Shown here one piece after another: positions 1,269 to 59,664 of a stretch of 64,000 nucleotides of DNA (within the stretch, counting starts at the first letter, position 1; the number at the start of each line of letters is the position of its first letter). Source of the stretch: Amoebophrya sp. A120 (taxonomy: Eukaryota; Protista; Dinoflagellata); assembly GCA_905178155.1 (NCBI GenBank), contig CAJINV010000005.1, positions 6,311,207 to 6,375,206 of the forward strand, read 5' to 3'. The translations under genes were made by a program, and so were the position numbers. The notes beneath the pieces were generated by a model that saw only the letters and a list, made by a program, of their open reading frames with translations, was not told where the DNA came from and searched no databases.

Positions 1269-3044
1269 TTACAAATGAGAGACCCGACCCTCCTGCATCG
1301 CGGAACCAATGACGGTTTGCACCGCGGTAGCTGCAGAAGAACCCAAGTGGTCTGATGTACTACCCCCGCTCGTTCCTGTGGGCGCCAGCCATTCGCGGCG
1401 GACGGGCCGCTCAACTGCTGTGGCAATTGAGTCTGCGCCCTCTCCTTCAGCTGTATTCGACGAGATGAAGTTGTCAACACCTGTTGCTCCTTCTTGCACA
1501 GTAGTTTGACTTACTTGCATTGCATCCTCGCCTGACGTCGCTGCCATGTTTCTTCCTTCTAGTCCTGATGAGGAGAACTCGCCTTGATTTTCTACTCCTG
1601 TATTCTCCCCTGTAAAAATTGGCGGGCTCGGCACGGGATCATCACCAGCCCCACCAACACCCCCGGGGATAGGTGGCTGGATTGCTGTTGGCTGTAGCGA
1701 CGCAGCTGGCGAAGCAGTAGTAGAAACACCTGTCGGCTGCAAAATTGGGCGGGTCGTGCGTGTGGGTGGGAGCGGGGCGACAGCGAGGTGGTGGGGAGTT
1801 GTGGTACTAGGTGGCAAGAACGTTGTTCCGGCAACGGCCATTCTAGTATTTGTAGTTCCGCGGACCATTGGCCGCTGCTGCGTGAAACGGGAGGTCATCT
1901 GCTGGGGTTGTGCGTAAGGCGGGGCAAACCGCGGCGGCAGCTGGTGGTTCTGGGACGAGAGATAAGTCGCAGCGCCCACGTACTGTTGCTGCCTCGCATT
2001 CATCGGAGTTGTAGAGGTGCCAGAATTAGAAGCGAGATAGTTCTGGTGTTGCTGTTGCCCAATCCAGATCCTGGTTTGACCGCCTTGCTGTTGATGAACC
2101 AAAGGGGCCCGCGGCACGAAGGACCCAGCTTGTGGGGTCGAAGACACGACACTAGTAGGTCTACTCAACACGGGCTGTTGTCGCATCACAGCCACGGCCG
2201 GGGAAGAGGGCGACTGCGCCAGGTGGTGGTGCGCCTGCGCAGCCGTAGCCGCAGGTGGGGCAATTGAAATTGTTGTTCCAGACGTGTTCAAAAAGTCGGC
2301 GCTGGCAGAAGGGGATGTTGTACTTGTAGCGCCACGCGACAAATCTCGTTGTTGCAACACAGCCGGAGGAGCACCTTCGCCCGGTGTACCCGCTGGCGCG
2401 TCCAACTCCAATTGTGGTGCCTGCTGGGCGTTGAGCGGTGGGGTCGGGGGCAGAGAAATACTGTTTGTACACTCTCGTCCAGCTGCTTGGAGATGCAGGT
2501 GCTCCACGTCGACCTGCTCGTTCGAAGGAGTTGTCGTTCCACCAGCAGTTCCGGCGTTGCTCATGATTTCTGGCGTGGACGGGGCGGCGCTCGATAAACC
2601 CGTGTTGTCGCACGCCGTGGGGAGCCGCAGAAAAGGCACTTCGATCGGCGGCGTCCACTGTGGCCCGCCGGCGCGGCCAGTCTTGGAGGTGCCACGGGCC
2701 AGCTGCGGCTGCGGTTATGAAAGTTCTTGTGAGCACAACTCTGCCTGCTCCCCTTATTTTGGAAGGGCATGATAAGCAACTACACGGGCAACGGCAGCAA
2801 TATAGTGGCTCCCGCATGACAAATCTGCATGCGGATTGTAGCAGAGGGCGAGGTTCCAAAATTTACCATGCAGTCGAGAATGCTCCCTGATCAGAGACAG
2901 GATGTGCTGCATGTGCATTAGCATTTGGTATGTTGCATGACAAAACAGGGGGACGGGAGTTGTGCACAATTCTCATAGCGGTTGCCACAGGACGACCGGG
3001 GGCGTGGTGGGGCGATTGATCTGCAAAGGTTTTTTTTGGTTCAT
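1269..3044 (-). CDS. Low-complexity P/Q/S/T-rich hypothetical protein, ~502 aa, 1 introner
   Basis: ATG at 3044 (MNQKKPLQ...). Removing 2716-2977 plus 5 nt joins in frame to ORF 1269..2639. Confidence 0.7.
2716..2977. mobile_element. TIR introner, family F11 (GCACAACTC)
   Basis: TAT..ATA ends, imperfect TIR, TSD GCGGT/GCGGT, frame restored. Confidence 0.85.
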
Positions 3045-3389
3045 CTTAATACCGTCTGCACTGTCTGACACAAAAAAAAACTAAGTACAATTTTCCAAAA
3101 CTATATGTCAAAGCTGTTCCATCTGAGTCTAACCCATGTCAGGAGTACCGTGATCCGCACCGCTGGAGCAAGTTCGACCGCATGATTGGTTTCCCCCGAG
3201 CCCACCGTCGTAGCCGCAAGGGAGGGGGATGCTCCAGTATGCACAAGAAAAAGCTTCGATAGCACGATAGCACTCGCAGCTACACGACAGAATTCACGCG
3301 GCGAGAGAAATAACCTGGCGCTGGCCACTTTTATTCATTGAACAAGGCGAATGAAGTTCGCTGCTAGTTCCGTTGCAGGACTGCATTTT

Positions 3390-4960
3390 TCATTTGCGCT
3401 GCGGCTGGAAGATCTTCACGGTCCACCTTCGAGTGCAATCTACTAGCATCTTCTGTGTGTACTTCGCATACTGTGTTGCTGTACTGTCCATATCCGTGGC
3501 TGAAGCATCAGCACTGGGTGACTCCTCTAGATCATCGAGATCCACATCCATATGCATCTCTCGACCTAATTCTCCTCCCCCTTCGCTGGGCGCCGGCGAC
3601 AAAAACGGGTTGTTGTTTCCCTCCCCGAAAAGGACGTCGCTACTGGGCTCTGAGATGGGCTCCGTACGGGGAGTCAGATTCATGATCATGTCATCTGCGC
3701 CGATTTTATTTCCAGGTGGAGCAGGATTTGTTGTTGTTGTTCTGCCCGCCGGCGGCGGCGCACTTGGCAGTCCTCCTGGTGGTGGGCTGGGTAGTTGTTC
3801 TACAACTTGCTGCAAGGATGTTGAAACGACAGCTGCTGGAGACAACTCCTCCTGGCTCATCATATCAGGTGCTGTAGATGAAGAGGAAGGTCCTGCACCA
3901 GCATGCGTGTCTACTTGTTTCGCTAGTAATTCGTTTCCTAACTGGACCAGTGGTCCAGCGACATTGTTGCTGAGAAATGCCTGAGCATCTTTCGTACCGG
4001 TTCGCTTATGCGAGGTTTTTTTGTTTCTCGGAAGATGATGTTGAGCGACCTCTTGACCCCCGCGTAGTGGCCCACCTACGCCGACACCAGCACTCGAAGC
4101 GCCATTGTTCGGGGTCGCAATTCTCGCCGCTGCACCCTGGTTGGTCAACAAGGGCAGGCATAACTGCTGTTGTAGGCTGGGTGCAGGGAAAGACGAAAAT
4201 GTACCCGTGTTTGCTTGTGCGCCCTCAGGTTCCTCCACGCTTGCGGACCCAAAATTATTCGATCCCCTGAGCTCGCTACTCAACCCCCCAAGCGGCGTTG
4301 TGCAGTTGGTGGCCCGTTCCCAGGGCGCGTACCCGAGGGTAGAGAGTGATTTTTGCAGTTCCTCGTGGGTAGCCTCCGTGACGATGCGTGGCTCGTTGGT
4401 GCTGGAGGATGCGTCACCTTGCTCGGCTGACTGGGATTGAGATTCTGCCTCACCTGCGTAGTACAGCTCGTTGGCATTCCTGACCCCGTAGTTGGTCTCT
4501 ACAGGTACGACTTCGATTTCCCCAGCACTATCGGCACCACCGCAACAGTCACACGGCGAACTCTCGTCGGAATTGGGTCGGGTTTGGAAATATCCTGTGC
4601 AAAAGTATCGCACTCGTACTAATTGCAGCCATGCATGACAGATCTATTTTGTAAGCGAAAACAGCATTACAAATCGCATTTTTGTTCTTGAGAAAATTTG
4701 TCATGCAGTTCATACTAGTACGATACTTTTGCACAGGATATGAAAGGGTCTAGTTGTACTTCGTCTGCTGGTACGGAGTCCGCTTCGCCGGAGGAAGTAT
4801 GCGCGCCAGCAGCTGGGAGAAGGAAGGGGATCGCGGGATCATGTTCCTGATGATGTTCTTCTTGCACGCGGTCAGCCGGCGCAGGTGAGCAGTAGGCTGA
4901 TCCGGAGCCGGGGCTGGAGGCCTGAGAAAATAATGTGGCAAGAACGCGATTTTTTGTCAT
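3390..4960 (-). CDS. Low-complexity hypothetical protein, ~471 aa, 1 introner
   Basis: ORF 4715..4960 (...QLDPF) joins ORF 3390..4613 (QTRPN...) after removing 4591-4740 plus 5 nt. Confidence 0.7.
4591..4740. mobile_element. TIR introner, family F1 (~150 bp, TGCAAAAGTATCG)
   Basis: Perfect 20-bp TIR TATCCTGTGCAAAAGTATCG, TSD GGAAA/TGAAA. Confidence 0.95.
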
Positions 4961-6343: not shown

Positions 6344-9300
6344 TCACCGAAAACAGTCCGTATCCACGCCGGTACCAGCCCCCCCTCCGATTCTCATCCC
6401 GTTGGAGTTTGCGTTTCTGACCAGTTCCGTCTGCGCACTTTCCGCAAACTTGTTTTTGTTACCATCCGTCAAGCCCTCGACCGGCAGTTGCAACTTATTC
6501 TGCAGTTTCGAGTAGTCTTTCACGACGGGCTTGTTCGGTACGGGACCACTGAGGGACAGATCGTCTTCCACTGGTGTAGTTGTACCAGAATCGTCCTGCT
6601 TACTACTCTCTACTTGTTCCGCATTTTGGTCGTCGTGCCGAAGACCTCCATGCTGTTCGTTGAAACGCATCAGCTCTTCTTCCGTCCGCCCCGCTTTCAG
6701 CCAGGCGTATTCCTGGACCGATCGGGTCCCGTACGCCATGCAATCAGAGGTGGCAAAGTAGAGACAAAACTTCGACTGGTTTTTATTCCCGGAAAGGTTG
6801 TTCTTCACGCCGATATGCATTGCAAAAGTATCGCACTCGTATAAATGCATTACAAATGTCCTCAGCATGAGAAATAAAATTTGTAATGCTGACCTACCTC
6901 AAGGAAAAGATTTGTGATGCATGATTGCAATACGAGTACGATACTTTTGCAGAGCATATCCGAAGGCATTCAGCAGCTCCTCACTCGGTTCAGCCAGTCC
7001 CGCCAGCGCCAACGGCCAGTTGATGCCGAATTTGGGAGCTTGCGCAAAGATCATCATCCCCGGGAACAAAACCATCAAGCCCCATTATCAGAATGAAAAA
7101 TCCCCCCTCCCCACATCAAAACGGAAATCTGTGATGCTAAAACAACCGCACCGACATTGCCATTGCCATTGTCCATTATCGCTTACGGAAATCTGTGATG
7201 CGGGATTTGTGTACACAAATCCAATCTGTCTAGCAGTAGAGGACTGCAGGCAGATGCAGCGCCTGAGTAGGGGCGCTTTGCTGTAGGCGCCTAGCAAGGC
7301 AGGCATATCCTCTGTAGGCGATACAGCATTACAAAGTGCCTGCCAAACGCGGCTGATTCTCTGTCTTTGCCCTCTTGCAATACATGGACGATTTGTGGTC
7401 ACAAATCAGCATTGCAAATTTTCAGTAGTGCCCCTTTTTGGTATGGGTAGGGTGGATTTTTCCTCACAATACCCACCACAGAATGAACATTATGGAGGCG
7501 AAAAGGTGGAAGCCCGTCCGGATTTTGAACACCGAATTAAAGGAAAAAGACGCGGACAGGACTATGCAGTGCAAAATTATCGTACTCGCAGTACTGCAAC
7601 ACAAATTCGCTTTAGCATGACAAATGGAATTTGTCATGCTGAGTTAGCTTGAAAAAGAAACTTGTCTTGCATGACTGCGATGCACGATGCTTTTACAAAG
7701 GATAAGGACGGACTTCGGCGGATTGTAGTCCGTTTCGATGCGCTCCGCTTTATAAATTGCAATTATTTCTGGGTCTGGAAAGAACTTGTGATGCTAGAGT
7801 ATGGATAAGTCTGGCGCACTCAAGTGTAGCCACGCATGACAAGTTTACTTGACATCGTCTGAAGATGCGTAGCACGCATGACAAACTGCGTTCTTGCATG
7901 ACGAAAAACTGGCGCCTTTGCTGGCTAAGCAATACAGATTTTTCAAGAGTGTAGAACATGCAACACAATTTGCGCTTTTCCAGACCCAGACATATTTCTT
8001 GCAGTGCATACGCTTCTTGGTGGTGCGATGATGAAGAAGTTCGACTTGCATTTTTATTTACCTCCACCACCCGAGCGGTGTATTCCCGTCTTCGGTGCGT
8101 ATCCACTGCAAAAGTATCGCACTCGTTTGAATTGCAGGTATGCATGACAAATCTGGTTTCCTACCCAAATCTGCATTACAAATTCCAACTTTCTTCCTGA
8201 TAAAATTTGTCATGCGATTTATACTAGTACGATACTTTTGCAATGCATAGTGCGGCTGGTACGGCGACTGGAGAAAAACGTCAAAGAACCACCGAAATTT
8301 TTTCGGGAAGACGTAGCGGGGTACCGGTTTTGGCAGGCCGCAGAGCTGGACATGATCTGCAGGAGCGCGACGTTCGCTGGTAGCGGTAGAAGCGGCTGCG
8401 CCACTCCAGTGTCCCGCCTGTAGTTGATGTTTTTCCTTCTCTGCTTCCGCGTGTAAAACCTGCTGGTGAAACTCATGCAACGTTTCCAAACGATCACTTG
8501 TTGGGTAGTAGTTTAACGCCGTACTATCGTGGTTGTCATCGGCTCCGCCTGTTATGCTGCTCATCACCCCCGTTATTCTCCCCCCCGCGCGCGCCGAGGA
8601 ACTTCTACTGTTCCTCGTGTCACTGTTATCCACAGTAAATTTCCTGTACATGTGCACATGCGGTTTCTGCATGACAAGGCTTTCTTTTAATTCTGTTCAG
8701 CATGACAAGTGGCACGCTCGAAGTTGGTGAATAAATTTGTGATGCATTTTGTACATGTACAGCAAATTTGTATTGCATAACTGTAGGACAAATGCAACTC
8801 GTATTCCAGGTCACTCAAGGGGTTCATGCCCAGGGTAAACACCATAGTTTCGCAGGCCAGCGTCCAGATGGCGTACAGTCCCCAAACAAAGGCGAAGAAG
8901 ATGAACAAGGAAAACGCCTTGAAGTTCATGCCCCCAACGCAATTCCCGATGAAAGGGCAGTGGTGGTCGAAGTGAAAGGTGCAATGTTGACAAATCCTGC
9001 AGTGGTGCACCTTCTGCGAGTGGAAATACGGCTTCCAGATGTGAGAGGACGGACAAAATTCGAAGTCAAAAGCGACCATGTGATCCACCTTCTTCGTATT
9101 CTCCGCCAGGGCGGCAGGAGAAATTTTATTTCCACTGGACGTCGTCGCGCCACTATTTTTATCCGCAAGTACTAACGGTATGCCCGTCATGTACTCTTTT
9201 TCGTAATTGGTCAACTCGTGTCTCCAGAACTCGTTCAGAATGGACCGGTACTTCTTCGGGTCGGAAAAGTACAACCCGTACTGTCCGATCACGCTGTCCC

Positions 9301-12146
9301 CGTTGGTTTTGTCCACGGCAAAATTCCCCTTGTTATCCTCTGCAAAAGTATCGTATAGTACCGTAGTAATTGCAGTATTGCTATTGCGTGACAAATCTAG
9401 GGCCTATAGGCAAACTCAGCATGAGAAATTCCATTTGTCATACTGAGCGAATTTGTAATGCGATTTCCGGGATAGTACGATACTTTTGTAATGCATACTT
9501 GTACCGAAAACTCTCTTTCTGAAACGGGTCGATGTTCCACGGGTAAGAGTGTTCCGGCTCGTAGCCCGGATTCCCGAAGCTGGCGGAAAAAATCGAAGCA
9601 AACAGCAGCGGCCAGAACAGGACAAAGCCAAAACAAATCCGTGCCGCACCGTGCAGGTGGAGGCAGTTGTGGAGGAGGTATTGTTTTTGCGACTTCGATG
9701 TAGCTCCTGCTGTACCGTTTTGCGAATTTCTGTTGTGATGCTGGAACCTGACTAGACCGATGCTGCGAAGCTGCTCTTCAGTCAATTCCGATCCGTCAAC
9801 TCCAGTTCCATTCGAGAAGTCTCCTGCAGCGGCGCCCGCGTAGAAGTTGTTGTAGGTCTTATTTTGCTGGCTCGACGCTTGCACCGGCTCCCCAATGACG
9901 TAGCGATACCGCGAAGCAGATCTGCTTCCCATGGTCGAGGGCCCGCCGTAGTAGTTGTGTCCACTACTAGCGGCGTTTGATGTTGTTCCTACAGAAGTAG
10001 TTGCCTCGTCACTAGAAGGATTGCCGTAGTACTCCACCCGTTTATTTTCTCGGACCAAAATGGGCACGTGCTGGTCCATTTTTACTGTGTTGTCCGTTTC
10101 GCCATCATCATACAGATATGAACTGCAAAAGTAGTATCGTCCTAGTATAAATTGCATTACAAATTGACTTAGCATTACAAATTAAATTTGTAATGCAGAT
10201 TTGCCTTAACAAAGAGATTTGTAATGCATAAACGCAAAAATTAGTACGAGTACGGTACTTTTGCACTGCATAACAGGTCAGCGATAGGGTCAACATCTTG
10301 CTCGTCTTCAGCAATTTCTTTACCCCCGAATATGCATTGCAAATATGTCTGGGTCTGGAAAAGTGCAACTTGTCATGCCAAATCTGAATCATACAAAAAG
10401 CTGTGTTGCATGATTGCCAATAAAGCTGTTCACTTTTGAGAAGGCCGAGAGGCTGTTTCTCATGCGGAAAAGGCATGGTAAAGATCTCACATAATCTGTG
10501 ATGCTAGGGCATGCATCACAGACCTCACGCGTCATGCAACACGTGCATGACAAACGTTGCACTTTTCCAGACCCAGACATTTTTACAGTTGATACCGAAA
10601 TAAGCACCAGAAGTTGTGAACAAGTTTTTCCTTCTCATTTCCCCGGCGCACTTTCGACAGCAAATCGAGTTCGCAGCTTTCTTCGATGTTCGAAACGCGA
10701 AGGCGTACAGGTCAAAGTCGACGAAATAGACGTCCAGCATGGCCTTGGTCCAGAACACCCAGGAAAAAATCGCAAACACGATGTAGTAGGACGGCAAAAT
10801 ACTTTGACTCGGTCCGTACACCAGCGGCCCGATCTGCAACGCCACGGTGAGGAACAGAATGTGGACGAAACCGCAGAACCCGAAGGCAAACGCGTTCGCG
10901 TAGATAAGCGCGGTGGGGTCTTGGTTCAGACTCGACATCGCGTTGGTGTTAAACCGGCCGTTGTCGTGGTTGTTCAAGAACGGAGCTTGACAACCCGCGC
11001 CGATCGCGTTCAGGCAGAGTGTGCGACAGCCGTTGCAGTAGTTGTGTTTCAACACGTCGTAAAAGGCGCGGGTGATGGTGTGAAAGTGAAAACTCAGAAT
11101 GGTAAAAATGCTCACCAGCCCGGACCGCGGAGTCTGGTGGCCCGGAACTATCGGAGGCGGGGGTTTCGCGAAGAACATCATCGTCGTTGTTCCTGCTTTC
11201 GATGCTCCTGAAGACGCCACTGCAGTGGTAGAGCTGCTAGTTGCACTCGCATTGCCCATCATCACCAAGTGCGCCGGATTCCAGTTTGCGGGCAAGAAGT
11301 AAAACAGCGGGAAACAACAAATGCTGGAGCAGAGTAACTGCCGGGCAAGCTGTTCTTCCAGAATCAAGTCTGGATCCATGGAATAGGACTGAAAGTGCCC
11401 GGTGTAGGAAGTGATCATTTGATTCGCGTTTTGGTTCTCATTGTAATCTACTGTTCCTGCTCCAGCGAACTTCTGCGCAGAAGTAGGTGATGTCCACCTA
11501 TTTGTAGAAGCTGTACCACTATGCATTGCAAAAGCATCGCGCTAGTATAAATCGCAATACAAATTTTCTCAGAAGGAGAAATGTAGTTTGTAATGCTGAT
11601 TTGGCTACGAAACAGGATTTGTCATGCATGATTGCAATTAGTACGAGTGCGATACTTTTGCAGAGCATAACCACCGTAATTTGGCTGAAACGATTTCGCG
11701 TCGTCCACTTCCACCTGCCAAGATTCGTGGAGACTCGAAGGCTCGCTAGTACTTGCAGCGTCAACAGTAGAACTGAAAGCAGTAGAACTGAAACCATTAT
11801 GTGGCTGCTGCTCCCCCTCTGCCTGGGGCGGTCGGCTCATTCCACTCGTGGATCTCGCTGTCCCTGTCGTTGTGTCCAGGGTCATTTTTTTTCCGATGTA
11901 GTTACAACTTTCGACGTCCTTCTCGCTACTTGAAGAGCTACTTGACGAGGAACTTGCCGCGGAAGAACTGTTTGCCGTGGTTGAAGATGATGTCGTAGAA
12001 GAGGTCCCTGCACCACCTCCACTTGTTCCTACCGCTGTTGAACTTTCTGTACTTCTTCTCTCCTGCTCGCCTTCCTCCCCACTAGAAGAGGAGACTAAAA
12101 TCTGCGTTTTGTCACCGATCCGTCGGGCCGACAGTTTGATTTCCAT
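6344..12146 (-). CDS. DHHC zinc-finger palmitoyltransferase, ~1260 aa, 10 introners
   Basis: HHCRICQHCTFHFDHHCPFIGNCVGGMNFKAF motif at ~8910-9010, upstream NPG motif and flanking TM helices. All 10 junctions are in frame after removing element plus 5 nt. Confidence 0.9.
6814..6958. mobile_element. TIR introner F1
   Basis: TSD GCCGA/TCCGA, frame restored. Confidence 0.92.
7086..7471. mobile_element. TIR introner, family F3 (GAAAAATCCCCC), with internal filler insertion
   Basis: TSD CCCAT/CCCAC, frame restored. Confidence 0.9.
7563..7704. mobile_element. TIR introner F1 (degenerate)
   Basis: TSD AGGAC/AGGAC, frame restored. Confidence 0.9.
7751..8010. mobile_element. TIR introner, family F2 (~260 bp, GTCTGGGTCTGGAA)
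   Basis: TSD CGCTT/CGCTT, frame restored. Confidence 0.92.
8100..8249. mobile_element. TIR introner F1
   Basis: TSD GTGCG/GTGCG, frame restored. Confidence 0.95.
8627..8779. mobile_element. TIR introner, family F12 (AAATTT-CTGTACATGT)
   Basis: TSD ACTGT/ACTGT, frame restored. Confidence 0.88.
9334..9497. mobile_element. TIR introner F1
   Basis: TSD CTTGT/CTTGT, frame restored. Confidence 0.93.
10117..10272. mobile_element. TIR introner F1
   Basis: TSD ACAGA/ACAGG, frame restored. Confidence 0.92.
10331..10594. mobile_element. TIR introner F2
   Basis: TSD CCGAA/CCGAA, frame restored. Confidence 0.95.
11520..11669. mobile_element. TIR introner F1
   Basis: TSD ACCAC/ACCAC, frame restored. 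Confidence 0.95.
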
Positions 12147-12841: not shown

Positions 12842-15598
12842 TCAAGAAGAAAAAACTCCGCCTGGTTTCTTTCGCAATCGACTTGTAGTTGCCGATGGCA
12901 TTTTTGCCAACGAAGAAGAGGAGTTAGCAGGAACTATTTCAGCACTATCCACCTGTATTCTTTGAAATGAAGGAAGTTGCTTCTCTGAATGCACTTGTTC
13001 CAGCACTTCTTTTTCGCGTTCTCGGAACTTCTCAAAATTTTCGATTAGCAGGGAAAGCGCAGAATTATCATTCTCTGAAAATGTTACTTTGTTATTTCCT
13101 TCGTTATCTGCGCCCGCCACTGTAGCTGCACTAGTTGTACTCACCATCGGTTCGGTGATGAAAAGCAACAGGCTCCAAAGCAGTCCATCGCTGGGAAAGT
13201 TGTCGTAGATGTACTCCGACCGGATGATTTTCGACATGTTATCCCCGTGGTCTCCTCTGTAATGCTTGTTGTAAATCTGGGACTGGAGTGATTTCAGGTT
13301 CCACACTGCCAAAGCATCGTCCTGCGTTTCATTATGAATTGCAAAAGTATCGTACTAGTATGAATTGCATTACAAATTGACTTAGCATTGCAAATTAAAT
13401 TTGTCATGCGGATTTACCTTCAGAAAGAGAACTTGTGATGCATGATTGCAATTACTACGAGTACGATACTTTTGCACAGGATATTCATCGGTTTCCTGCA
13501 AAACCCTTGTCAAGGAGACGAACTCTATCCTGAGAAAAAAGTGTTACAGTTACACATTCTTATGGGAGACAAGCAAGACAGACAACCTCTGTCATGCAGG
13601 AAATGCTTGCCAGCGTCATTTCATTCGTGTTTTAGTTTTCCCTTAGAGTCTGCGCATTACAAGTTTTCTTTGCCGTGCAGAGCAAATTTGTGATGCTGAA
13701 ATTCCAACAGATGTGTAACTGTAACACTTTTTTCTCGTGATAAACTCGAGTTCTCGCATAGTAGTTTTTCCTGTCCTGCTCCCGGTCGTGAGCACAAGAT
13801 TCTTGTCAAATTGCATCACAAATTCTTGCAGCCGCTTCAGTTCGGCGGTTTCGACGAGGTATTTTCCATTGCTGTCAGAAGTGTCTGTCTGCTTGTTGTT
13901 CCCCTTTCTCTTCAATAGCTTCAGCCGCAATAAAGCGTCGGTGAGAGCGAGGAACCGCTGGTAGTCTTCGATTCGAGACAAGCTCGAAAATGGTTTCAAA
14001 AGCGTTTTTGTTGTTCCTCCCCGTGGTTCTACTTGTTCTTCGTGATTTGTCATTCTACTGTTGCTTCGTACAACTTCCAACTCCCCCTTGAAGACGGACC
14101 TTTGTTCTGCTGCTGTCCCGCTTCCAGAATTGATTTTCGAAAAAATTCTCGGCACGATGGCGGTTGTCACCTCTCTGAACGCTGAGAACGTGTCCCGTTT
14201 CCACTTGCTCTCGGCGGCTTGCGAAGAATCGTCCGTGGTCGTGTGCAGATCCGACTCGTTCTGCTGGTGTTCGTCTTGCACATTCTCGCTATACAGCTTC
14301 CCACTCTCGCAATCCATCCGCACCACCCATTTCAAAGCTCTTAAACTAGGCTTTTCGTTCTGGAAGTAAACAAAACTGGAAAGCAGCAGCAGGAGGTTGA
14401 GCGACAAAGCGATAGCAGTAGCAGGGGGCGACGTACTTGAACTTGTCTTTTGTTCGTTAGTATGTTTCCCAGTAGAAGTTTTTACAGATGTTGCCAATAT
14501 TACCCTTGTTAAAAGTTCCTGGATCGCGAGGCCAGAGAAGACTCCGCAGGGCAGCCCGACCGGAATTAATAAGTAGCTGTACAAATCGGCCACGATCGCC
14601 GTGTCGCCGTTGTTGGGGAAGATGAAGTGACGCAGTTCGGGTTGCAGAAAGAGCTCCAGGAATTTCGGATAGAGTAAAAACGCGGAACTCGCGGTTAGCC
14701 CACCCACTGCAGCGCCGAGGAAAGGGTTTGTGTTTGCCTGAGAAACTGTGCCTGCATTTGTCATTTTCTGTTCGGGCATAAAATTTCGAAGCAGAGAGGA
14801 CCTGCTGGTGGCTCTGTCCAAGAAGTTCTTTAGTCCTATCGGCAGAGAAGTATTAGAACTTCCTCCTCCGAACAGCTTCGACTCCGCGAGCAGCAGGTAC
14901 CAAACACCGCTCGTGACCCCGTTCGCCAGTGCGATCGGCAAAAAAAGGTCTCCGTGGTGGCACACAAACGGCACAAAGTGCTTCACCAGAACACTGTACG
15001 CGCCGAAGCAACCGAAGAGCCCCGCGGAGAACTTGAGCAAATTCCCGAAAAACGTCGTGGGAAGGTACCTCGACCAAGTGATCCCGGCGCCGACGAAGAT
15101 GAACAGGGGCGTGAAGAGGGCTGTACTGGTGGAGACTAGCAAGGTTCGGTGGAGAAGAGAGGGTGGTGGCGGGGGCGGTGGTGCGGCTGGTTCCTGGTCA
15201 TGATCATGATGATCCACTCTTGGTTTTTTGTTGTCATTCGGATTCGTCCCCCCGGTTGCATACGTTCTCCGTGTCGTGTTAAAAAATGTGGCCGGAGGAC
15301 GTGCGGACGAGCGATTGATGTTTTTGTAGTTCGCCGTCATGACAATTCTACTTCGCAAGGCCCGGCGTTGTGAACAAAAACGTCGAAGGTCGCGAGGAAT
15401 TCTGGAGCCGCAGCTCGTAGCTCTGAATACAACCGAAAGTCGTGTGCCGGTCATATTCGTCGGAAAAGCAAATCCACCATGTCGCACCGTAAAAGGGGGC
15501 ACCAGCTCGAGCTGCATCGCCGAACAACACTGCAGCCGGTGAGGGCCAGCTCCTCTGGTGAATACTGGATTTTTAGGTCCGGTGGATAGCAAACGCAT
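12842..15598 (-). CDS. Multi-pass membrane protein of unknown function, up to ~792 aa, possible mitochondrial presequence, 2 introners
   Basis: 651-aa ORF with several Gly-rich hydrophobic helices and an R/S/T-rich N-terminus. Joins via EFVSLTRVLQETDE to ORF 12842..13312. Start codon uncertain. Confidence 0.75.
13333..13483. mobile_element. TIR introner F1
   Basis: TSD TTCAT/TTCAT, frame restored. Confidence 0.95.
13526..13742. mobile_element. TIR introner, family F5 (AAAAAAGTGTTACAGTTACACA)
   Basis: TSD AACTC/AACTC, frame restored. Confidence 0.95.
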
Positions 15599-36721: not shown

Positions 36722-37042
36722 TATTGAGAGGAAAAATCCCCCCTCCCCATATTGCAATCGCATTCGTCCGAAAATTTGTGATGCAGATTTGAGGTCACAA
36801 ATCCTGTCTGTCTTGCAAAAAGGCAAAGCCTGAGATTCCGCCGCATTATGCCGGCGGTTTGTGATGCTGTTGGGCTTACAGAGCCGACACCTGTCATGCT
36901 GGTCCCCTACGTCAAAACCTCTCGACCCAGGCTGGGCATATGCCTGCAGTCCTCTCCAGCAAGACAGACCTGATTTGTGTACGCAAATGCAGCATCAGAA
37001 ACTTCGTTTCGATATGGGGAGGGGGGATTTTTCATTTTCGTA
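36722..37042. mobile_element. TIR introner F3, outside any recognised CDS
   Basis: TSD CCGCT/CCGCT, right end GTA. Confidence 0.92.
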
Positions 37043-37694: not shown

Positions 37695-37967
37695 TATCAA
37701 GTGCAAATATGTCGGGGTCTGGAAAAGATTGCTACATTTGTCTTTGCCATGCATGTCTGACATGCCTCGAGAATCTGTGACGTGTATGGGTATCGGAAAA
37801 AGCGCTCTTACCTGTTATGCAAGAACGCAGTTTTCCACGCGGAATACGCAACACACAGAAGCTCAAAAATTTGTCATGCTTGGCTCCGTATGTTGGCAGT
37901 GCGCCTCTCACTCCCTTTTAGCATAACAAGTTTCATCCAGACGCCCCAGACACATTTGCAATGCATA
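37695..37967. mobile_element. TIR introner F2 (degenerate), in probable 3' UTR
   Basis: TSD ACTGA/ACTGA, 20 nt past the stop at 37988. Confidence 0.88.
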
Positions 37968-50696: not shown

Positions 50697-51004
50697 TATG
50701 GGAGTGTCAGGATTGAAATCGTCAAAGTTGAAACAACTTGTAATGCATAAAATCGATACCAGTTAGAAGCCCAATTTCCAAGCGGCGCATGACAAATTTG
50801 GGTAGAACCGAAATCCAGTTTGTAATGCTGTTTGGGTAAGGAAGACGCCTTTTGTCGTGCTACTTTAGCAGCTCTATTTCTACCCCGCAACAGGCTTACA
50901 GCCTGCCTCTCTTGCCTACTCTGCAAGACAGGCAATTTGTGGGTTGCATTTTATGCATCACAAACTATTTCAACTATGACGATTTCGGTCCTGACGCTTC
51001 CATA
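50697..51004. mobile_element. TIR introner F9, outside any recognised CDS
   Basis: TSD TCATT/TCATT; opposite orientation to the 48705 copy. Confidence 0.92.
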
Positions 51005-51445: not shown

Positions 51446-54400
51446 CTAGAAGAAAATCGGTCGTTTCAACAGCATATGCATTGCAAATATCCCTGGATGT
51501 CTGGAAGGATGCGAACTTGTGACGCATGTAGTTGCGCATCATACAAAAATCTGTGTTGCGTGACTTCTTGCAAATAAAGGTGCTCACTTCTGGCCATGCT
51601 GAGGGGACATTTTCCATGCAGAACAGGCATCACAAGAAAGGAGCTGCAGATCCTGTGAAGATGCTAGGTCCTCCTGCAGTCCAGACTTGGTGGAGCTTGG
51701 AAAAACTGCATGACAAATCTCCGAATCTTCCAGACCCAGACACTTTTGCATTTGATACAGCACTTCATGAACAAAGAAGCTGAGAAGGTCCCTCGCCCGT
51801 ATGGCGTTCTCAAACGTTACATTCTCAACTGTTACATGATTTGTCATGCAAAATCACAATTAGAATTGATACGATCAAGCTGCTCCGCATCACAAATTCT
51901 CGAAGAGCCAAACAGGCTGAAAATCTGTGCCAAATCTGTCATGCTAGACGCGCAAGGCCACCCCTTCGACTTTTGCCATTCTTGCGTCACAAATTCATGT
52001 AACAGTTGAGAATGTAACAGTTGAGAACGCCATAGCCCGTATCGCTTGGTTAGCGACGAAATCCGAGAATTGCCTTCCCTGTTTGCGTATCAAAGACATA
52101 CATGTCTGGGTCTACTGGAAGATTGCAATACTCGTCGTGCAGATTTTTCATGACTCGTGAGGTGTGGAATGCAGGACCCAGCATGACAGACTCTGCGAGG
52201 CCTATATCATGCCAATGCCTATCGATCCTGCATGAAAAAGAACTCCCGCTAAACTTGCAGGTCAGAAGTGGCCAAATTTTGGTAAAGATCTTCACGCAAA
52301 ACAGATTTTTGCACGATGCAGACTTAGCATGACAAGTTGCAGTGTGTAGTTCCAGACCCAGATCGGTATCTGCAATGCATATCGCGCACAAAGGACTGGA
52401 AAGAACGACCTGTATGGTTGCTTTCGTGCTCTCCTTGTTGCCTGGTTTTCTTCCGGATGGCTTCAATTTTTTCCTTTTTCTCGAATATTCTGAGTAAAAA
52501 CGTCCCCACCCCAGAGCTGTCATGCAAATCTGCACGCCAGAAAAGTTTCTCAATTGGAGCCCCATGAGAGACATGCTCCCGCCGTGTTTTGAAATTTGTG
52601 ATGCTAGTATCAGCATGATATGCTAGATCTGCGACGCTTCCGAACTAGCTAAACAGGATTACACTACGAGGGTAGACTTCTTGTCATGCGAAACAGCCAA
52701 AGCTGGTTGATTTGTCTAGCAGATTTCCCATCTCTACTCTGGTGGGGGGACATTTTTCCTCAGGATATCGAACCTGGACGGTTTTGGAAACATGGTTTGG
52801 AAAAAGGTCGTATCCTGTGCAAAAGCATCGTACTCGTATAAATGCAAGTCTTCCATTACAAATCTTTTTCATAAGGCAAATCCGCATTACAAATTTTATT
52901 TCTCATGCTGAGGAAATTTGTAATGCATTTATACGAGTATGATACTTTTGCAGTTCATAGGTCGAGAATTTCTTCTCCGGCACATCTCCGTACTCCTTGC
53001 TGATTCCCTTGCCTTGAATATTCATGAAAAACGTTTTCTTCCGCTTCACGACCTCCGCCGGGTCACAATCGTTCGCCGCGCCATATCAAATGCAAAAATG
53101 TCTGGGTCTGGAAGAATGCATGTTTGTCATGCTTGTCTGGGATGTTGACTCTTAAATCTGTCATGCACGTTGCCAAAGTGCCCAGTTGTTCTGTCATGCA
53201 GAAACGCAGTTTGTCATGCAGACTAGGCAACACCTAGAAGCTCAGAAAGTTGTCATGCTGCGCCAGCACTTGTGGCCTCCTCCTGATACGCCACTCAGCA
53301 TCACAAGTTTCCAGACCCAGACATTTTTGCATTTGATACGCCACGGCTGTGACACAAGTGAAAGAGGTTGTTCTCGTTGAGTAGTCGGAACCGGTTCTCG
53401 GACAGGCAATCCGCGCAGCCGATTTGCATCGCGTGGCCGGCGATACAAACCGGATTGAAGTCGGCGTAGGAGTTTCTGTCATCTTGTTATCAACATGAAA
53501 AATCCCCCCTCCCCATATCAAAGTGGTAATCTGTGTTGCGGGATTTGTGTATGTCTTGCAGTAGAGGAGTGCAGGCAGATGCAAAGCCTGGAAGGGGCTG
53601 GCTAGAGGTGGGCGCTCAGCATCGCAGACGTCTGCCCTGTTGGCGCAGCAGCATTACAAACCGCCTGCGTAAAGTGGCGGAAGCTCTGGTGGCGTTGCTC
53701 TCTTGCAAGACAGACCGGATTTGTGAAAACAAATCAGCATCACAAATTTTCAGAAGGATGCTTTTTCGATATGGGGAGGGGGTGATTTTTCCTTACGATA
53801 CTTGTTCCCGGGCTTCCAGCGGCGCTTGAATAGAAGGATAATTGCTCTCCTCTCCATCTCCGCTGCTCGTACTACTAGGTGCTCCGCCGTCGGTACTAGG
53901 TGCTGTTCCGGCGGTGTGAAGATTTTTTTTACCTTGTTCCAGCAGAAGGGTGACTTGATCTGCCGATGCTTCTGCTATCTCACCACGCTTAGAAGAAGTG
54001 CCCTGCTCTGGTCCTGCAGGGTCGTCTATATCCACCTTCGTGCTCATCAACATCTTCTCGTCGTGTAGTTGTTGGTCGTGCAGATCTGCTGGCGAAATAG
54101 TTCTAGCTTTCCTACTTTTTTCCCTTCGTACTCCCTCTAGTACCGCTTGTTCTCCTTCGTGCTCTTGCTCTTCATTTGCTGGGGTCCTCGTGATGAAAAA
54201 GGATTCGTTATTCCCCTCGTCGTGGTCTTCTACTTCACTTCCGTGGGGGTTTACAACATTCCCGCCAGTAGTTGTCTTCGTTGATCTCGCCAAATTTTCG
54301 AAGAAGGCCACGGTCGTCTGCAACGCACACTTGCTCAACACTGACACGCTGTATGAACTGCAAAACTATCGTATTCGTATAAATGCATTACAAATTATTT

Positions 54401-57400
54401 CTCTGCATGAGAAATAAAATTTGTAATGCTGATTTACCGTAAGAAAAAGATTTGTAATGCAAGATTGCAATACGAGTACGATATTTTTGCACAGGATACG
54501 CCATGCAGTTCCGCGAACCCCGGGCGGTGGAGACAGTAGCCGGGCGGTATCGTGAGAAGGATCCCCCCTCCCCATACTCACAATGGAAATTTGTGATGCT
54601 GATTTGCGGCCACAAATCAGCTTTGTCTTGCATATGAGGCAAATGGGAGCCGCGTGGCGCACTCCACAGCCAAGCTGTCATGCGCTTTTGCCTACTGCAA
54701 AGCGGTCTGTCATGCCTGAGTGCTAACCTGAATTTGCATACCTAATCAGGCCTAGGAAATGCCTGCAAGCGCTGGCTGCAATACAGCGCTGATTTGTGTA
54801 CACAAATCCAGCAACATAAATTTTCGTTTCAATATGGGGACGGGGATTTTTTCACTTTGATAGGCGGGCCGTCGTCGCGCCCGTGCTTGTACAGCATCAG
54901 CTTGCCCGCTTTGTTATTCTGTGCACAAGTATCGCACTCGTATAATAAATGCAAGTCCTGCATCACAATCTTGTTCCCAAGGCAAATCAGCATTACAGAT
55001 TTTATCTCTCATGCTGAGGAAATTTGTAATGCATTTATACGAGTACGATACTTTTGCATTTCATATTTGTCAAAAAACGTGTTCTGGCCGTTGGCGAAGA
55101 AGTTTATTTTGGAAGACGTTGCCCCCCGCGTAGACAAACTTGTAGTTTCTTCTTCTTCATCACCCTGTTTTGGTATAATTATTTCCGGAGCTACCGCCGG
55201 AGCTGCTCCTGCTGCTGCAACGTCCTGCACCAGAAAATTGTCGTCGGGAAGGAAGTATGAATTGCAAAAGTAATATCGTACTTCGCCTATTAGTAATCGC
55301 AATCATGCATGACAAGCACAATAAATCTCTCTCTCAAGGTCAAGCTGAATCTACTGGATAATGACAAATTCCGTTTATCATTCTGTCATGCGATAGTTTT
55401 CTCACTAGGTACTATCGAATTTGCTTTTGCACATAGGATAGGAAGAGGAAAAACGGACTGAGATCGGGCAGAAACGCCATCGCTTGCTCTTTGCACAAAG
55501 TGTTAGCACTTTTCGTTTGGTGCACAACTTCGCCGTTATGTGATTGTTCTTTGTTCCCACAGGGTTCTACATAGACGAAACGGAGTTGCTTTTTCGTCCT
55601 CGCGGAAGTCGATTCCGAAACTTCTCGCTGCATGTCCTCCAGGGAGGTGCTCTGTTGTTTTTGTTCCTGGTAATTGTATAATGCGCTCTCCTGCAGACGC
55701 TGGTGATGTTCATCCTCTTGGGCAGCTGATGTGCGTAGAAGTTGACTACTGCTCTCCGAAGTAGATTCGGCTGCATTAATTCGATCCCGGCCCGCAGCGG
55801 CCTTAGCGAGCTTGATCTGCTGGTCTATGAGAGCGCACAACTCCGTCTCGTTCCCCTCATTTGCATTGCATGAACAGCAATACAGGCACCAGCACACATG
55901 GAGCCTGTACATGACAAACTCATGCACCTAGTGTAATACTGTTTGGGCTTCCGGAATCTGTCATGCATAATAGTGAGACAAGGGAGCAATTGGGATTGTG
56001 GATTTTGCATGAGAAATGAGACTGAGGGGGAGTTGTGCGCCGTCGTATGGTCGGTCAAAGAGACAAACTCCACAGTGGTTTCATCCAACCACGCCGGCGC
56101 CTTGTCCAGTTCTTCTCCCAGGATGAAAATCCTTCCGACCTGGTTCAGCAAGCCGAAGCGTTCGTAGGATATGGTATTCTCAACCGTTACCTTCTCAGCT
56201 GTTACATGAATCTGTAATGCAAGAATGGCAAAAGCGCAAGGGGGAAGATTGCAAAAATTGCATTACAAATCCCGCGCAGATTTAGGTCCTGTTTAGCCCT
56301 TCGCAAATTTGTCATGCGAAGCAGCTTGATCTTGTGGATCATGATGGTAGTTTCGCATGACAAATTCATGTAACAGTTGGGAATGTAACGTGTGAGAACT
56401 CCATATAGGATCGGAGTTGGTTGCGGAGGTCTTCGTCCCCGCCCTTGCTGCTCCAAAAAGTGACGACTATCCAACAAAAAAACACCATCACAATCACTTT
56501 TGCACATTTTTGCAATACAAAAATTTTTGTCATGCGCAAAAATGCATCACACACAGTCAAGAGTTAAAGGCGATTTTCCTTTGTGTTTTTGCAATACAAG
56601 AAAAATTTGTCATACGAGACAAATTTCTGATGCAAAACCTCCTAAGTGTGATTGTGATGGTGTTTTTTTCTTGGATAACGACGTCAATGGTTCTATTCCG
56701 CTGTGGAAGATGGTTGCTGGTGGACCGCAACATGCGGTCGTCTGGTCCTTGTGGTGCTCGTCCGGAGGAAGATGCTGTGTTAGAGCTTTAACACCCGCTA
56801 GCATGAGTAGCGGTGAATCTTTAGTGAATTTTGCATGACAAGTTGCAGAGTAGACTGCAGATGCGTTGTCCCTCTTGGTCTTCTGGGGAGTAGGTTCTGC
56901 ACGCTGCGCCAGAACGAAGTCGCGGCTCATGCGGCGGGCAGCTAGAAATAACCTGGGCGTTCTTGTTCTTTGGGCCATTTTTGCGCCTCCCCGTGCTTGC
57001 ATCAGAGCACTACAGCAGCATGGCAAAGCACCAAAAAGAAAGGCGGCGAAACGCATGCAACTACGCAAAAAGGCGCGAGAGCAAGGGCGAAAGGACCAGG
57101 CCGGGAGCTTTGACGCGTCTATCCGGCAGGCGTGTGAACTCTCCCGGCCTTTTCGGCAGAATATAGACGGGCTGAGGGCAGCAGAGGGCGCTTGTCTTTT
57201 CCCTCCGGCCCCACTTCCCAGGGCCTATTTGCGGACTTCCTTGAGCACTTTCTCAGGCAGACGCGCAGAAGAGTAAGAGCCACCCGATCCACCTTCTTTG
57301 GTTACATACGCACTACACAGCCCGGCGAGCCCCCGCAAGACCACTTCTTTCGGTCCTGCAAGCGCCACCACGCGACGAGCAGCCCTTCACGCTATGTGGG

Positions 57401-59664
57401 ATGCTTGGGCTCGTGTCCATACCTAGCGCACTTCTCTTTTAAGTACTTACTTAAATGCAAGTCATGCAATACAAATTCAGTGGAAATTCACCCTTCTGTA
57501 CGCTAACGACCGTCCAAGGCATAATCCGCAACATGCGGTCGTCTGGTCCTTGTGGTGCTCGTCCGGAGGAAGATGCTGTGCTACCTCCGAAACGTTCGTA
57601 GGATATGGTGTTCTAAAGCGTTACCTCCTTCTCAGCTGTTACCTGAATCTGTAATGCAAGAATGGCAAAAGCGAAAGGGGGAGGATTGCAAAAATTGCAT
57701 TACAAATCCCGCGCATATTTAGGTTCTGTTTAGCCCTTCCCAAATTTGTCATGCATACCCGACTGCACCACATCGAAAACCTTTGCACCGTCGCCGAAGC
57801 AGCTTGATCTTGTGGATGATGATGGTAGTTTCGCATGACAAATTCAGGTAAAAACAGTTGGGAATGTAACGTTTGAAAACTCCATATAGGATCGGAGTTG
57901 GTTGCGCAGATCTTCGTCCCCGCCCTTGCTGCTCCAAAAAGTGACCACTATTCAAGAAAAAAACACCATCACAATCACTATTGCACGCTTTTGCAGTACA
58001 AAAATTTTTGTCATGCGCAAAAATTAAAATGCATCACAGTCAAAATTTCTCCGGGTTTACCCTTCTGTTTTTGCAATACAAGAAAAATTTGTCATGCGAG
58101 AAAAATTTCTGATGCGAAACCTCCTAAATGTGATTGTGATGGTGTTTTTTTCTTCGATAACCACGTCAATGGTTCTACTACTCCGCTGTGGAAGATGGTT
58201 GCTGGTGGTGGACCGCAACATGCGGCTATGGGGTTCTCAGCCGTTACATTCTCAATTGTTACATGAATTTGTCATGCAAAAGCACCATCATCATCCACGC
58301 GATCAAGCTGCTTCGCATGACAAATTTGCCTAGGGCTACACAGCACCTAAATCTGTCCGGAATTTGTAATGGTACAGGCGCAACCCTCCCCCTTTCACTT
58401 TTCCCTTTCTTGCATCACAAATCCATGTAACAGTTGAGAATGTAACAGTTGAGAACGCCATAGCGGTCGTCTGATCCTTGTGGTGCTCGTCCGGAGGAAG
58501 ATGCTGTGCTACCTCCTATCCCGGGGAAAAATCCCCCCCCCATATCGAAAAGGTATGTTTCCGAAAATTTGTGTTGCTGATTTGAGGTCACAAATCACAT
58601 TTGTCTTGCAAGAAGACAAGGGCAGAAGCTTCCGCCCCACTATGGAAGGGGTTTGCCATGCTGTTGGCCCTAAAAGTGACCCGCTTGCCATGCTGAACAA
58701 CTAGACCCATACGCCCCTACCTAGCATGGGGATTTGGCCGCAGTGCCTCTCTGCAATACAAACCTGATTTGTGTACACAAATCCAGCATCAGAAATTCCG
58801 TTTTGATATGGGGAGGGGGGATTTTTCCTTTCGATACCTCCATGCAGCTCCTGGCACTGCTTCCCGATCTCGTCCCCCAGTAGCTCCAAGGCCACGTCCT
58901 CCTCGAAATTCTTTTTCGGATTATTGGTCAACCGATACAGCTTCTGCAACTGCGCATCGCTGAGATGCTGCCGCTTCTGCTGCACAAATTGCTTGAGGGA
59001 AAAGCTCATCGTATCCAGCTGCCGGATCGGGGCGAGTTGCTATTAAACAAAAAAGTGTTAACGTTAACGGTTTCCGCAGATGGCAGTCACGCATTACAAA
59101 TTTTGCCTTCCATGCATGCTACGCAATACAAATTTGGGCAGCTTGTTTTCTGGTGCATTACTGCATCACAAATTCCGTCAACGGTAACACTTTTCGTTGT
59201 GATAGTTGCCTCGATGAAGATGCTAACTTTATTTGCTGGTGGGAGGTACTTGTCTGCTTCTGCTTGCTCAAGCTCATCATCCCCGAAGCTGCACGCCCGG
59301 TCGTGGAGGACGTGGATAGGGAATTCTTCTTCGTGGTAGTTCTTTCCATTTTTGCGGTCTTGGAAGATGCTGTGGACGTCGACCTTTTCAACATCTGGTG
59401 CGCTGCGGTCTTCGCCTTCTGACTTTTCGACTTGGACGAGGCCCCCATCTCCATGGCGGCCACTTGGTGTATTTTTATTTGTGCGGGCGAAAAAATATTG
59501 CACGCTGTCCAGTGAAGGTCTTGATCATGCGGCAAGAAAAAGAGGACCACGACGTGTTTCAACATTTTTCTCACTGCCGACAGAAAGCTTGTTCTTCTTG
59601 TTGTGCGGATGAAGTGGCCGCGGGAGGACATGATCTTCACGGCAACAGCAGCACGAGACTGCAT
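51446..59664 (-). CDS. Stealth-family protein (putative hexose-1-phosphate transferase, GNPTAB/CpsY-related), ~943 aa; 19 introners, a 746-bp insert and an internal tandem duplication
   Basis: Spliced motifs TIDVVTFW (CR1), DEDLRNQLRSYERF..RIFIL..PAWL..LPDLSPFFLFLPDDNFL (CR2), FFMNIQ..FFQTMFPKPSRFE (CR4). Hydrophobic N-terminal stretch. Start uncertain. Confidence 0.78.
51475..51757. mobile_element. TIR introner F2
   Basis: TSD CAGCA/CAGCA. Confidence 0.93.
51800..52034. mobile_element. TIR introner F8
   Basis: TSD GCCCG/GCCCG, frame restored. Confidence 0.95.
52088..52381. mobile_element. TIR introner F2 (degenerate)
   Basis: TSD TTGCG/TCGCG, frame restored. Confidence 0.88.
52486..52767. 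mobile_element. TIR introner F7
   Basis: TSD TCGAA/TCGAA, frame restored. Confidence 0.94.
52811..52959. mobile_element. TIR introner F1
   Basis: TSD GGTCG/GGTCG, frame restored. Confidence 0.95.
53084..53338. mobile_element. TIR introner F2
   Basis: Perfect ~29-bp TIR, TSD CGCCA/CGCCA. Confidence 0.96.
53488..53800. mobile_element. TIR introner F3
   Basis: TSD CTTGT/CTTGT, frame restored. Confidence 0.94.
54352..54498. mobile_element. TIR introner F1
   Basis: TSD CGCTG/CGCCA, frame restored. Confidence 0.9.
54548..54862. mobile_element. TIR introner F3
   Basis: TSD GGCGG/GGCGG, frame restored. Confidence 0.93.
54915..55065. mobile_element. TIR introner F1
   Basis: TSD TTTGT/TTTGT, frame restored. 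Confidence 0.94.
55256..55440. mobile_element. TIR introner F1 (degenerate)
   Basis: TSD GGAAG/GGAAG; splits Stealth CR2 (FLF|LPDD). Confidence 0.9.
55826..56047. mobile_element. TIR introner F11
   Basis: IR GCGCACAACTCC, TSD TGGTC/TGGTC, frame restored. Confidence 0.88.
56170..56405. mobile_element. TIR introner F8
   Basis: TSD TAGGA/TAGGA, frame restored. Confidence 0.94.
56468..56677. mobile_element. TIR introner, family F10 (AAAAAACACCATCACAATCAC)
   Basis: TSD ACGAC/ACGAC, frame restored. Confidence 0.95.
56725..57580. mobile_element. 746-bp insert (56780-57525) flanked by exact 55-bp direct repeats of Stealth coding sequence
   Basis: Identical 55-mers at 56725-56779 and 57526-57580. 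Interior has imperfect subterminal inverted repeats (GGTGAAT..TGAATTT..TGCATGAC) bracketed by CGCTA/CGCTA (56801-57500). Confidence 0.7.
57604..57886. mobile_element. TIR introner F8 (paralog of the 56170 copy, with extra internal segment)
   Basis: TSD TAGGA/TAGGA, frame restored. Confidence 0.93.
57949..58159. mobile_element. TIR introner F10 (paralog of the 56468 copy)
   Basis: TSD ACCAC/ACCAC, frame restored. Confidence 0.94.
58227..58462. mobile_element. TIR introner F8
   Basis: TSD GCGGC/GCGGT; empty paralogous sites nearby. Confidence 0.95.
58517..58836. mobile_element. TIR introner F3
   Basis: TSD CCTCC/CCTCC, frame restored. Confidence 0.95.
59041..59204. mobile_element. TIR introner, F5-like
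   Basis: TSD GTTGC/GTTGC, frame restored. Confidence 0.9.

Follow-up and report, generated by a model that had tools for sequence, protein, structure and literature searches.

Introduction

The closest described relatives of the elements considered here are the introners of the dinoflagellate Amoebophrya sp. A120 (Farhat et al., 2021; PMC7789003), which, in the part of that report covered here, carry inverted repeats starting with TAT, seven nucleotides and an A-run, are bordered by short direct repeats and are removed without GT-AG. The same part of the report gives about 30 000 non-GT-AG introners and states that neither a U1 small nuclear RNA nor a transposase was detected in A120. We analysed a stretch of 64 000 nucleotides from this organism (contig CAJINV010000005.1, positions 6,311,207 to 6,375,206; hereafter the window, with positions counted from its first base), in which 86 elements combine TAT...ATA inverted ends with a 5-bp target-site duplication (TSD). 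These elements are the published introners: the organism is the same, one exon of the window being 100% identical to an A120 protein (P0001), and they share the TAT, seven-nucleotide and A-run ends, the direct repeats and the removal without GT-AG. The text of PMC7789003, its figures lying outside our coverage, describes terminal and direct repeats only; the internal motif, its spacing lattice and its sharing with canonical introns are described from the present analysis.

Other systems resemble the elements in part. IS3EU and GingerRoot (PMC10045372, covered in part) also have TA..TA termini, but their TSDs are usually 6 bp, against 5 bp here, and the elements are therefore not filed with them; the window elements are also non-coding, and no integrase-like DDE frame was found among seven long candidates. 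The best lead to what moves the elements is, by analogy, A120 introner family 38, which, among the rows listed in the covered part of PMC12130899, has a 5-bp TSD, TA/TA ends, a Ginger label and integrase-like homology. The subterminal repeats of MITEs (miniature inverted-repeat transposable elements), as described for Emigrant/Lemi1 in the covered part of PMC1636448, are short internal sites beyond the terminal inverted repeat (TIR) that are conserved in non-autonomous copies, as here; in the window, by contrast, the sites tile the whole element in either direction, in about 10 mostly unalignable groups, and are intact in ordinary introns. The ApiAP2 motif TGCATGCA of apicomplexans has the 5' half TGCATG in common with the present motif, as far as its source was covered, which makes this a candidate alveolate protein family, but the motif here is asymmetric, with an ACAAAT tail. 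No description of the motif was found in the literature searched, supplement text included and figures and part of the supplements outside coverage; the elements are already known, and what appears to be undescribed is the spaced motif code and the occurrence of that code in ordinary introns.

Short transposons need bent DNA for their ends to meet. Tn7 and Mu have multi-site ends, host DNA-bending proteins help transposition (HU and IHF for Mu and Tn10, HMGB1 for Sleeping Beauty), and the ends of Paramecium internal eliminated sequences show helical phasing. The likeness to the elements would be that short DNA must loop in phase for its ends to meet. These bending helpers have weak or single sites, whereas here a specific 10-12-bp site is repeated four to seven times; and, unlike the Paramecium sequences, the elements are removed in RNA, their removal being known from RNA alone.

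Results

Distribution of the motif

The first-pass annotation of the window had proposed that one motif of about 10 bp recurs several times in every introner family. The motif is confirmed as a real feature of the window, with a length of 10-12 bp. Exact matches to GCATNACAAA number 121 against 0.94 expected (at most four in 100 shuffles), and 117 of them fall within the 86 elements, the other four lying at 13813, 20386, 20584 and 26856. A learned matrix, (A/T)GCA(T>A)(G>C,T)A(C>G)A(A>G)(A>G)T, locates 431 sites in 85 elements, about five per element, in keeping with the several copies annotated; at scores above 10 the density in the window is 19.1 sites per kb inside elements and 0.58 per kb outside. 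Every one of the 86 elements has at least one strong site, and the motif is found in all 31 family consensuses. The array chosen as an example by the annotation was borne out, with forward sites at 10154 and 10172 and reverse sites at 10187 and 10218. Both orientations had been claimed for every family; they are present in 77 of the 86 elements, but the strong sites of group H (the lettered groups are located below) all point one way.

The window was supplemented by 144 loci of one public assembly, picked with the group B end pattern and amounting to 603 kb once overlaps were removed; three loci duplicating others (L090, L091 and L133; 37 kb) were removed from the corrected non-element figures. 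These loci gave 396 further elements, where shuffled sequence gave no false calls, and the relatives found there are 71-96% identical to window elements. Conservation and geometry of the motif were analysed in 481 elements. The ends start with TAT in 781 of 792 cases (TA being demanded by the detector) and have A at positions 11-14 in 82-93%, the A-run being missing from the ends of groups F, G and J. An exact 5-bp repeat borders 31 of 35 group B elements that were chosen without a TSD filter. Five of 89 first-pass element calls (19106, 45560, 46450, 49839 and 62238) were discarded as false, and an apparent surplus of TSD mismatches at edge positions, seen in the window, was absent from 65 further cases.

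Spacing of the motif

Neighbouring sites had been annotated as loosely 18-30 bp apart, which was not upheld: 106 of 219 same-direction neighbour distances in the window are 31-33 bp, and those between opposite-direction neighbours peak at 15-17, 34 and 46-50 bp. A direct pair at 30-33 bp occurs in 10 of 13 representatives against 2.5 expected, a result reached in none of 5000 random placements; a 31-33-bp direct pair is found in nine of the 10 merged groups, and the shortest family, of 109 bp, consists of a single pair of this kind flanked by TIRs. The first sites cluster 36-38, 44-48 and 56-59 bp from the element end.

Within 8-13 bp the best period is 10.4-10.5 bp, with an orientation offset of about 2.25 bp (R 0.49-0.63 against a null of 0.16-0.20; none of 1000 random sets), and the fit survives removal of the 30-33-bp pairs (0.41 against -0.03), while an 11-bp period in elements gives R 0.04. 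The 10.4-bp model fits nine of 10 groups and fails for H; the 16.4-bp model fails for B and E, and a universal 16-bp alternating lattice was rejected for this reason. Both models place opposite orientations on one lattice, which points to the symmetry of the duplex. No general AA/TT periodicity was found around the sites (R 0.05), so that a nucleosome-bendability signal is not supported; a link of introners to nucleosome linkers is described in the covered part of PMC9860276.

Conservation of the motif

Across the 15 families with at least eight copies, mismatch to the consensus is 3.1% in the motif core, 16.1% in the spacers and 6.1% at TIR positions 11-30, the core being lower than the spacer in all 15 families and about fivefold lower overall. 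Alleles common to at least three copies are ten times rarer in the core (0.04 per column) than in the spacers (0.41 per column). This pattern suggests that constraint acts mainly on copies that spawned others. Once inserted, a single site appears to lose its sequence about as fast as the spacers do, although the tests are weak and the TIRs decay equally: the split-half slope for post-insertion decay has an interval of -5 to +6 and no power, and core to spacer ratios among nearest-neighbour copy pairs (0.28-0.50) show no clear trend. The annotated persistence of the motif in decayed copies is therefore only partly upheld.

Families had been described as differing in their interiors, and with motif and TIRs masked, six of 78 group pairs align with Z above 6 and 72 do not. 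The related pairs are C-C2 (Z 23), J-L (10) and E-I (8.5), with weaker signals for B-D, B-H and D-J, and merging the three clearest leaves 10 groups. Spacers of the 31-33-bp modules look unrelated by eye. A remote common ancestor of the groups is possible, since termini and duplication length are shared. Position by position, equal decay of motif and neighbours in families aligning to one ancestor, which the annotation had named as evidence against its view, was not what was found.

The motif in ordinary introns

The annotation had placed the motif in introners; it is also present in non-element DNA, including predicted GT-AG introns. Strong sites outside element-like DNA number 160 against about 30 expected, the expectation coming from a slightly larger set. 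Per kb, elements hold about 16 strong sites and short introns 1.36; the figure drops to 0.38 for long non-coding DNA and to 0.11 for exons. Rarity in exons, as annotated, is thus seen, and exon frequency does not equal that of the elements.

A gene model blind to the motif predicted 115 GT-AG introns of 80-300 nt without element homology. Strong sites are held by 24 of these, 30 sites in all against 1.6 expected, where column-permuted matrices gave at most six (200 permutations), and motif words are the top non-homopolymer 6-mers of the 115 introns. The sites are intact: 48% of the excess intron sites score above 15, compared with 52% in present elements, whereas simulated neutral decay deep enough to hide homology leaves 10-14% above that score. 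No TSD or TIR remnant was seen in the motif-bearing GT-AG introns, and in 22 TIR-less introns the flanks of the sites have no counterpart in the sampled DNA. Direct pairs lying close together outside elements keep the spacing of the elements, eight of 16 being at 30-34 bp (p 2e-5; 22 close pairs in all). Two viral contigs that matched a 31-bp pair are one AT-rich phage-like locus and were treated as chance. Clustering of motif-bearing introns by gene is not significant (5 against 3.3, p 0.22), and outward polarity is weak, with 23 sites to 15 by nearest end.

In one gene, at 19.1-22.0 kb, the introns are confirmed by the annotated protein and by a 69%-identical homologue, and all four protein-validated introns hold one strong site each. 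All are TIR-less GT-AG introns on the minus strand: 20524-20686 (163 nt) has an antisense site (score 17.8) 99 nt from the 5' end, 20236-20434 (199 nt) an antisense site (16.8) 45 nt from the 5' end, 19571-19684 (114 nt) a sense site (14.9) 40 nt from the 3' end and 19354-19461 (108 nt) a sense site (15.3) 12 nt from the 3' end.

The 115 predicted introns are T-rich at their 5' ends and A-rich at their 3' ends (skew +0.09 and -0.08), with no polypyrimidine tract, a skew opposite to the polarity of the A-run in introner TIRs. The most frequent canonical donor predicted in these introns is GTAT (41 of 115).

Removal of the elements from RNA

Cutting out each element with one duplication restores minus-strand frames of 1077, 801, 1758, 1165 and 664 codons. 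All 22 single-element joints listed in the RNA data skip exactly the element and 5 nt, with no fixed GT-AG; 14 of them are in raw RNA reads and eight only in contigs guessed to be RNA. The raw RNA runs X9 and X10 cover parts of the window, X11 almost none of it. Removal at the DNA level was not seen in run X1, which was only partly counted: joined forms stood at zero depth for eight of the eight RNA joints listed.

Exact removal persists where 165 or 900 extra bases lie between the element end and the array. The group F element 42518-42919 has about 165 extra bases between its left TIR and its first site (at 208) and is removed as element plus 5 nt in 225 raw RNA reads. The element at 45521-46592, with TAT...ATA ends and a 5-bp TSD, is split by a 900-bp insert, has motif sites only near its right end, and is still removed in the same way in one likely-RNA contig. 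Group H copies are present and removed in both orientations in minus-strand genes (for the copy at 26970 inferred from the coordinates of contig 10 of run X3), and the copies at 43078 and 45189, with all strong sites antisense, are spliced in 81 and 48 raw reads respectively. The exact cut needs neither a given motif strand nor an intact distance from end to motif and is probably set by the TIR ends.

Copies with unequal TSDs, between 40856 and 52381, bear on the position of the cut. Junctions at 43078 and 46928 require at least one base to be cut before the element in mRNA sense, and the copy at 52088 permits at most one. One rule, with one base removed before TAT and four after ATA, fits all 22 joints, the informative genes being all on one strand, and a cut one base before TAT means that the introner intron begins N-TAT.

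Other RNA forms were also recorded. The tandem group B elements at 38801-39373, with three TSD copies, are skipped jointly (578 nt) in 458 raw reads. For the decayed copy 52088-52381, run X5 has contigs of a spliced form (depth 39.5) and of an unspliced one (depth 10.6), the latter reflecting retention or DNA carry-over. In run X10, 80-132 reads join 41187 to about 44588, skipping 3.4 kb without TIR or GT-AG, which is either an artefact or a rare isoform.

Element groups and insertions

Group A (about 150 bp, 19 copies) has the usual pattern of two forward and two reverse sites, as in the 156-bp example 10117-10272 with its sites at 10154, 10172, 10187 and 10218; the other copies are at 4591-4740, 6814-6958, 7563-7704, 8100-8249, 8627-8779, 9334-9497, 11520-11669, 13333-13483, 22918-23057, 27309-27458, 31269-31418, 31769-31913, 39440-39589, 41408-41559, 52811-52959, 54352-54498, 54915-55065 and 55256-55440. 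Group B (about 250-305 bp, 30 copies) has its first site 37 or 44-47 bp from an end and pointing outward, and lies at 7751-8010, 10331-10594, 20791-21045, 23238-23498, 25047-25303, 25369-25633, 29053-29318, 29846-30105, 30195-30447, 30952-31206, 31958-32219, 35985-36247, 37695-37967, 38801-39106, 39112-39373, 40120-40380, 40487-40747, 40856-41161, 41584-41856, 41894-42164, 43519-43781, 43885-44155, 44253-44517, 44778-45042, 46928-47200, 48102-48363, 49081-49333, 51475-51757, 52088-52381 and 53084-53338. Group B families 4, 8, 11, 20 and 27 are unevenly oriented with respect to the reading frame (5 against 22), a bias that is slight or missing in most other families.

Three direct pairs 32-33 bp apart characterize group C (about 310-325 bp, nine copies: 7086-7471, 24488-24799, 33897-34218, 36722-37042, 38087-38409, 39753-40079, 53488-53800, 54548-54862 and 58517-58836), and seven strong sites group D (about 305 bp, three copies: 28676-28984, 38462-38766 and 47256-47561). 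Sites alternate at 16-bp steps in group E/I (about 165-250 bp, 10 copies: 13526-13742, 19739-19973, 26490-26742, 30688-30893, 31476-31690, 42218-42427, 47840-48057, 56468-56677, 57949-58159 and 59041-59204) and, beginning with a reverse site, at 46-49-bp steps (reverse, forward, reverse, forward) in group F (about 235 bp, six copies: 32293-32530, 42518-42919, 51800-52034, 56170-56405, 57604-57886 and 58227-58462). Group G (about 305 bp) has two copies, 48705-49009 and 50697-51004; group H (about 280 bp), with its one-directional strong sites, has four, 26970-27255, 43078-43356, 45189-45472 and 52486-52767; and group J (220-262 bp) has two, 2716-2977 and 55826-56047.

Seven long TAT...ATA candidates yielded no autonomous element or transposase frame: six are known-type elements with inserts, and one 6.2-kb call was a false pairing of internal sequence. 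The insert at 45550-46449, within an introner, is 900 bp long and GC-rich, has no second copy in the sampled DNA and ends on the right in a 7-bp hairpin followed by CTGG before a T, which we take to resemble a Helitron 3' end. Inserts of 831 bp (32658-33587) and 745 bp (56726-57582) lie between direct repeats of about 50-55 bp; motif sites lie close to each end of the latter, which also matches locus L051 over 63 bp, and are absent from the former. A local duplication at 56100-58500 contains F and E/I elements twice each (56170 and 57604, 56468 and 57949).

Discussion

The motif is conserved, spaced and indifferent to strand in all element groups, and it occurs in some predicted ordinary introns. 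The annotated idea of a shared cis-code for one trans-acting factor is sustained by the fivefold conservation of the core, its rarity in exons and groups that are mostly unalignable. The sequence patterns make it likely that the motif is read by one protein acting on duplex DNA. Our favoured explanation, which goes further and is offered tentatively, is that one protein binding double-stranded DNA has the motif as its phased candidate site; this protein would probably be a host factor that is used at ordinary introns as well. One sequence-specific protein would bind the arrays along one face of the helix, and four to seven sites in phase would bend or wrap the 110-320-bp element until its two ends meet; the meeting ends would aid an integrase-like transposase, suited to TA..TA ends and a 5-bp TSD, in mobilising it. 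If the array is needed for mobilisation, variants inherited by many copies should spare the core, through selection on source copies. The same protein would bind ordinary introns, and sites there suggest that it is encoded by the host or is a domesticated transposase domain; it may mark DNA as intronic during transcription. A role of the motif in splicing is possible.

Several observations weigh against this explanation. The extra loci sample less than 1% of the genome and are biased to group B. Over 8-20 bp the best period is 16.3-16.5 bp in 219 of 300 draws and 10.4-10.5 bp in 81, and non-element sites fit periods of 10.5, 11 and 16.4 bp alike. From intact to damaged TSDs core mismatch rises from 2.3 to 3.5% and spacer mismatch from 6.8 to 7.9%, core mismatch is 2.5% in restored frames against 2.0% outside, and this apparent spacer-like decay after insertion shows no trace of host selection on young copies. 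Enrichment is also seen in long non-coding DNA (5.7-fold) and in exons (2.1-fold). Most of the GT-AG introns are predicted, Pfam backing the flanking exons of one gene among 41 pieces; 91 of the 115 have no strong site, so that the motif is no general requirement of introns, and two of the 24 motif-bearing introns are element fragments. Finally, 14 of the 24 motif-bearing introns start with GTAT, compared with 27 of the other 91 (p 0.015), a preference that could hint at old introner ancestry.

The close rival, which we rate slightly less probable, is that the motif serves the transposase alone, an integrase-like enzyme binding it cooperatively with no host role, the intron copies being scraps of unsampled families. 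There is precedent in Lemi1, which binds the subterminal motifs of the Emigrant MITE cooperatively (PMC1636448, in the part covered), and here too a short site at a defined distance from the TIR is conserved among source copies. Such an enzyme would account for conservation of inherited variants with near-neutral decay after insertion, for phasing relative to the termini, for splicing of copies with disrupted arrays and for the TAT...ATA ends and 5-bp TSD common to all groups. As a transposase subterminal site, the annotated candidate accounts for all that is seen inside the elements; it leaves unexplained the sites in 22 TIR-less GT-AG introns, which are as intact as in young elements, have flanks unmatched in the sampled DNA and show that the motif is not restricted to a transposon family. 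The 30-34-bp spacing of non-element sites also speaks against it, as does the lack of a transposase frame among the seven long candidates and of any transposase reported for A120 in the covered part of PMC7789003.

A protein that marks introns, another annotated candidate, would suit the GT-AG intron sites provided that it works on DNA, with a putative link to splicing. In its strongest form, which we consider unlikely, Amoebophrya, in which no U1 is detectable, would mark introns on the DNA template: a host protein would read the helically phased code and, while transcription is under way, loop or flag the segment, which a relaxed spliceosome would then cut. If this were true, transposons tiling the code would be spliceable either way round, and tens of thousands would thereby have invaded coding exons.

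A signal at the RNA level, whether a bidirectional branch-point-like or splicing-factor motif or stems joining the splice sites, is very improbable. To its credit, 10 of the 11 strong sense sites in the predicted GT-AG introns fall in the 3' half (Fisher p 0.02 with two thresholds and 0.056 with a third), mRNA-sense sites contain UNAC, and predicted folds pair motif with motif in many families; but H folds pair only 0-26% of motif bases, in group A the commonest central hairpin has mismatches at positions 5 and 7 (28 and 32 of 47 copies), and inverted partners agree at the degenerate position 5 in 0.27-0.29 of pairs against a background of 0.40. A branch point would call for a sense-strand motif near the 3' splice site. 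Sites number 391 in mRNA sense and 466 antisense. Of the 172 elements lying in restored frames, 117 place a sense site no more than 65 nt from the 3' end, against 117 expected at random orientation, and those with no sense site at all number 13 against 13.5. Antisense sites exceed sense sites 19 to 11 in the predicted GT-AG introns, and polarity by nearest end is slight. With no covariation of inverted partners, and with all-antisense H copies spliced, neither the RNA-pairing reading nor the annotated branch-point-like element is supported.

Equally hard to credit is a host chromatin or transcription-factor site that accrues in non-coding space with no part in splicing or transposition, its carriers being better tolerated. 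The enrichment of long non-coding DNA and the many ordinary introns without a site would suit it, but the density of sites is higher in short introns (1.36 per kb) than in long non-coding DNA (0.38), and phasing with the element termini requires some connection with the ends. Shared descent without current function, from one ancestor or a 32-bp tandem unit, is scarcely tenable, since for all the common termini, TSD length, A-run at positions 11-14 and related group pairs, descent alone predicts equal decay of motif and spacer and is refuted by the conserved core in 15 of 15 families, besides 72 of 78 group pairs that do not align and module spacers that look unrelated.

PMC7789003, in the part covered, leaves open how A120 recognises its introners and what moves them. 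The motif array, a 10-12-bp site at 32-bp spacing, offers a direct bait for naming the missing transposase or host factor. To our knowledge, few sequence-specific regulators are known in this lineage. If the favoured explanation is right and a host factor is shared with ordinary introns, A120 would have an intron mark at the level of DNA, which would explain the tolerance of many transposon families inside exons in both orientations, and the motif would offer a way into the question of how these unusual introns spread and come to be recognised.

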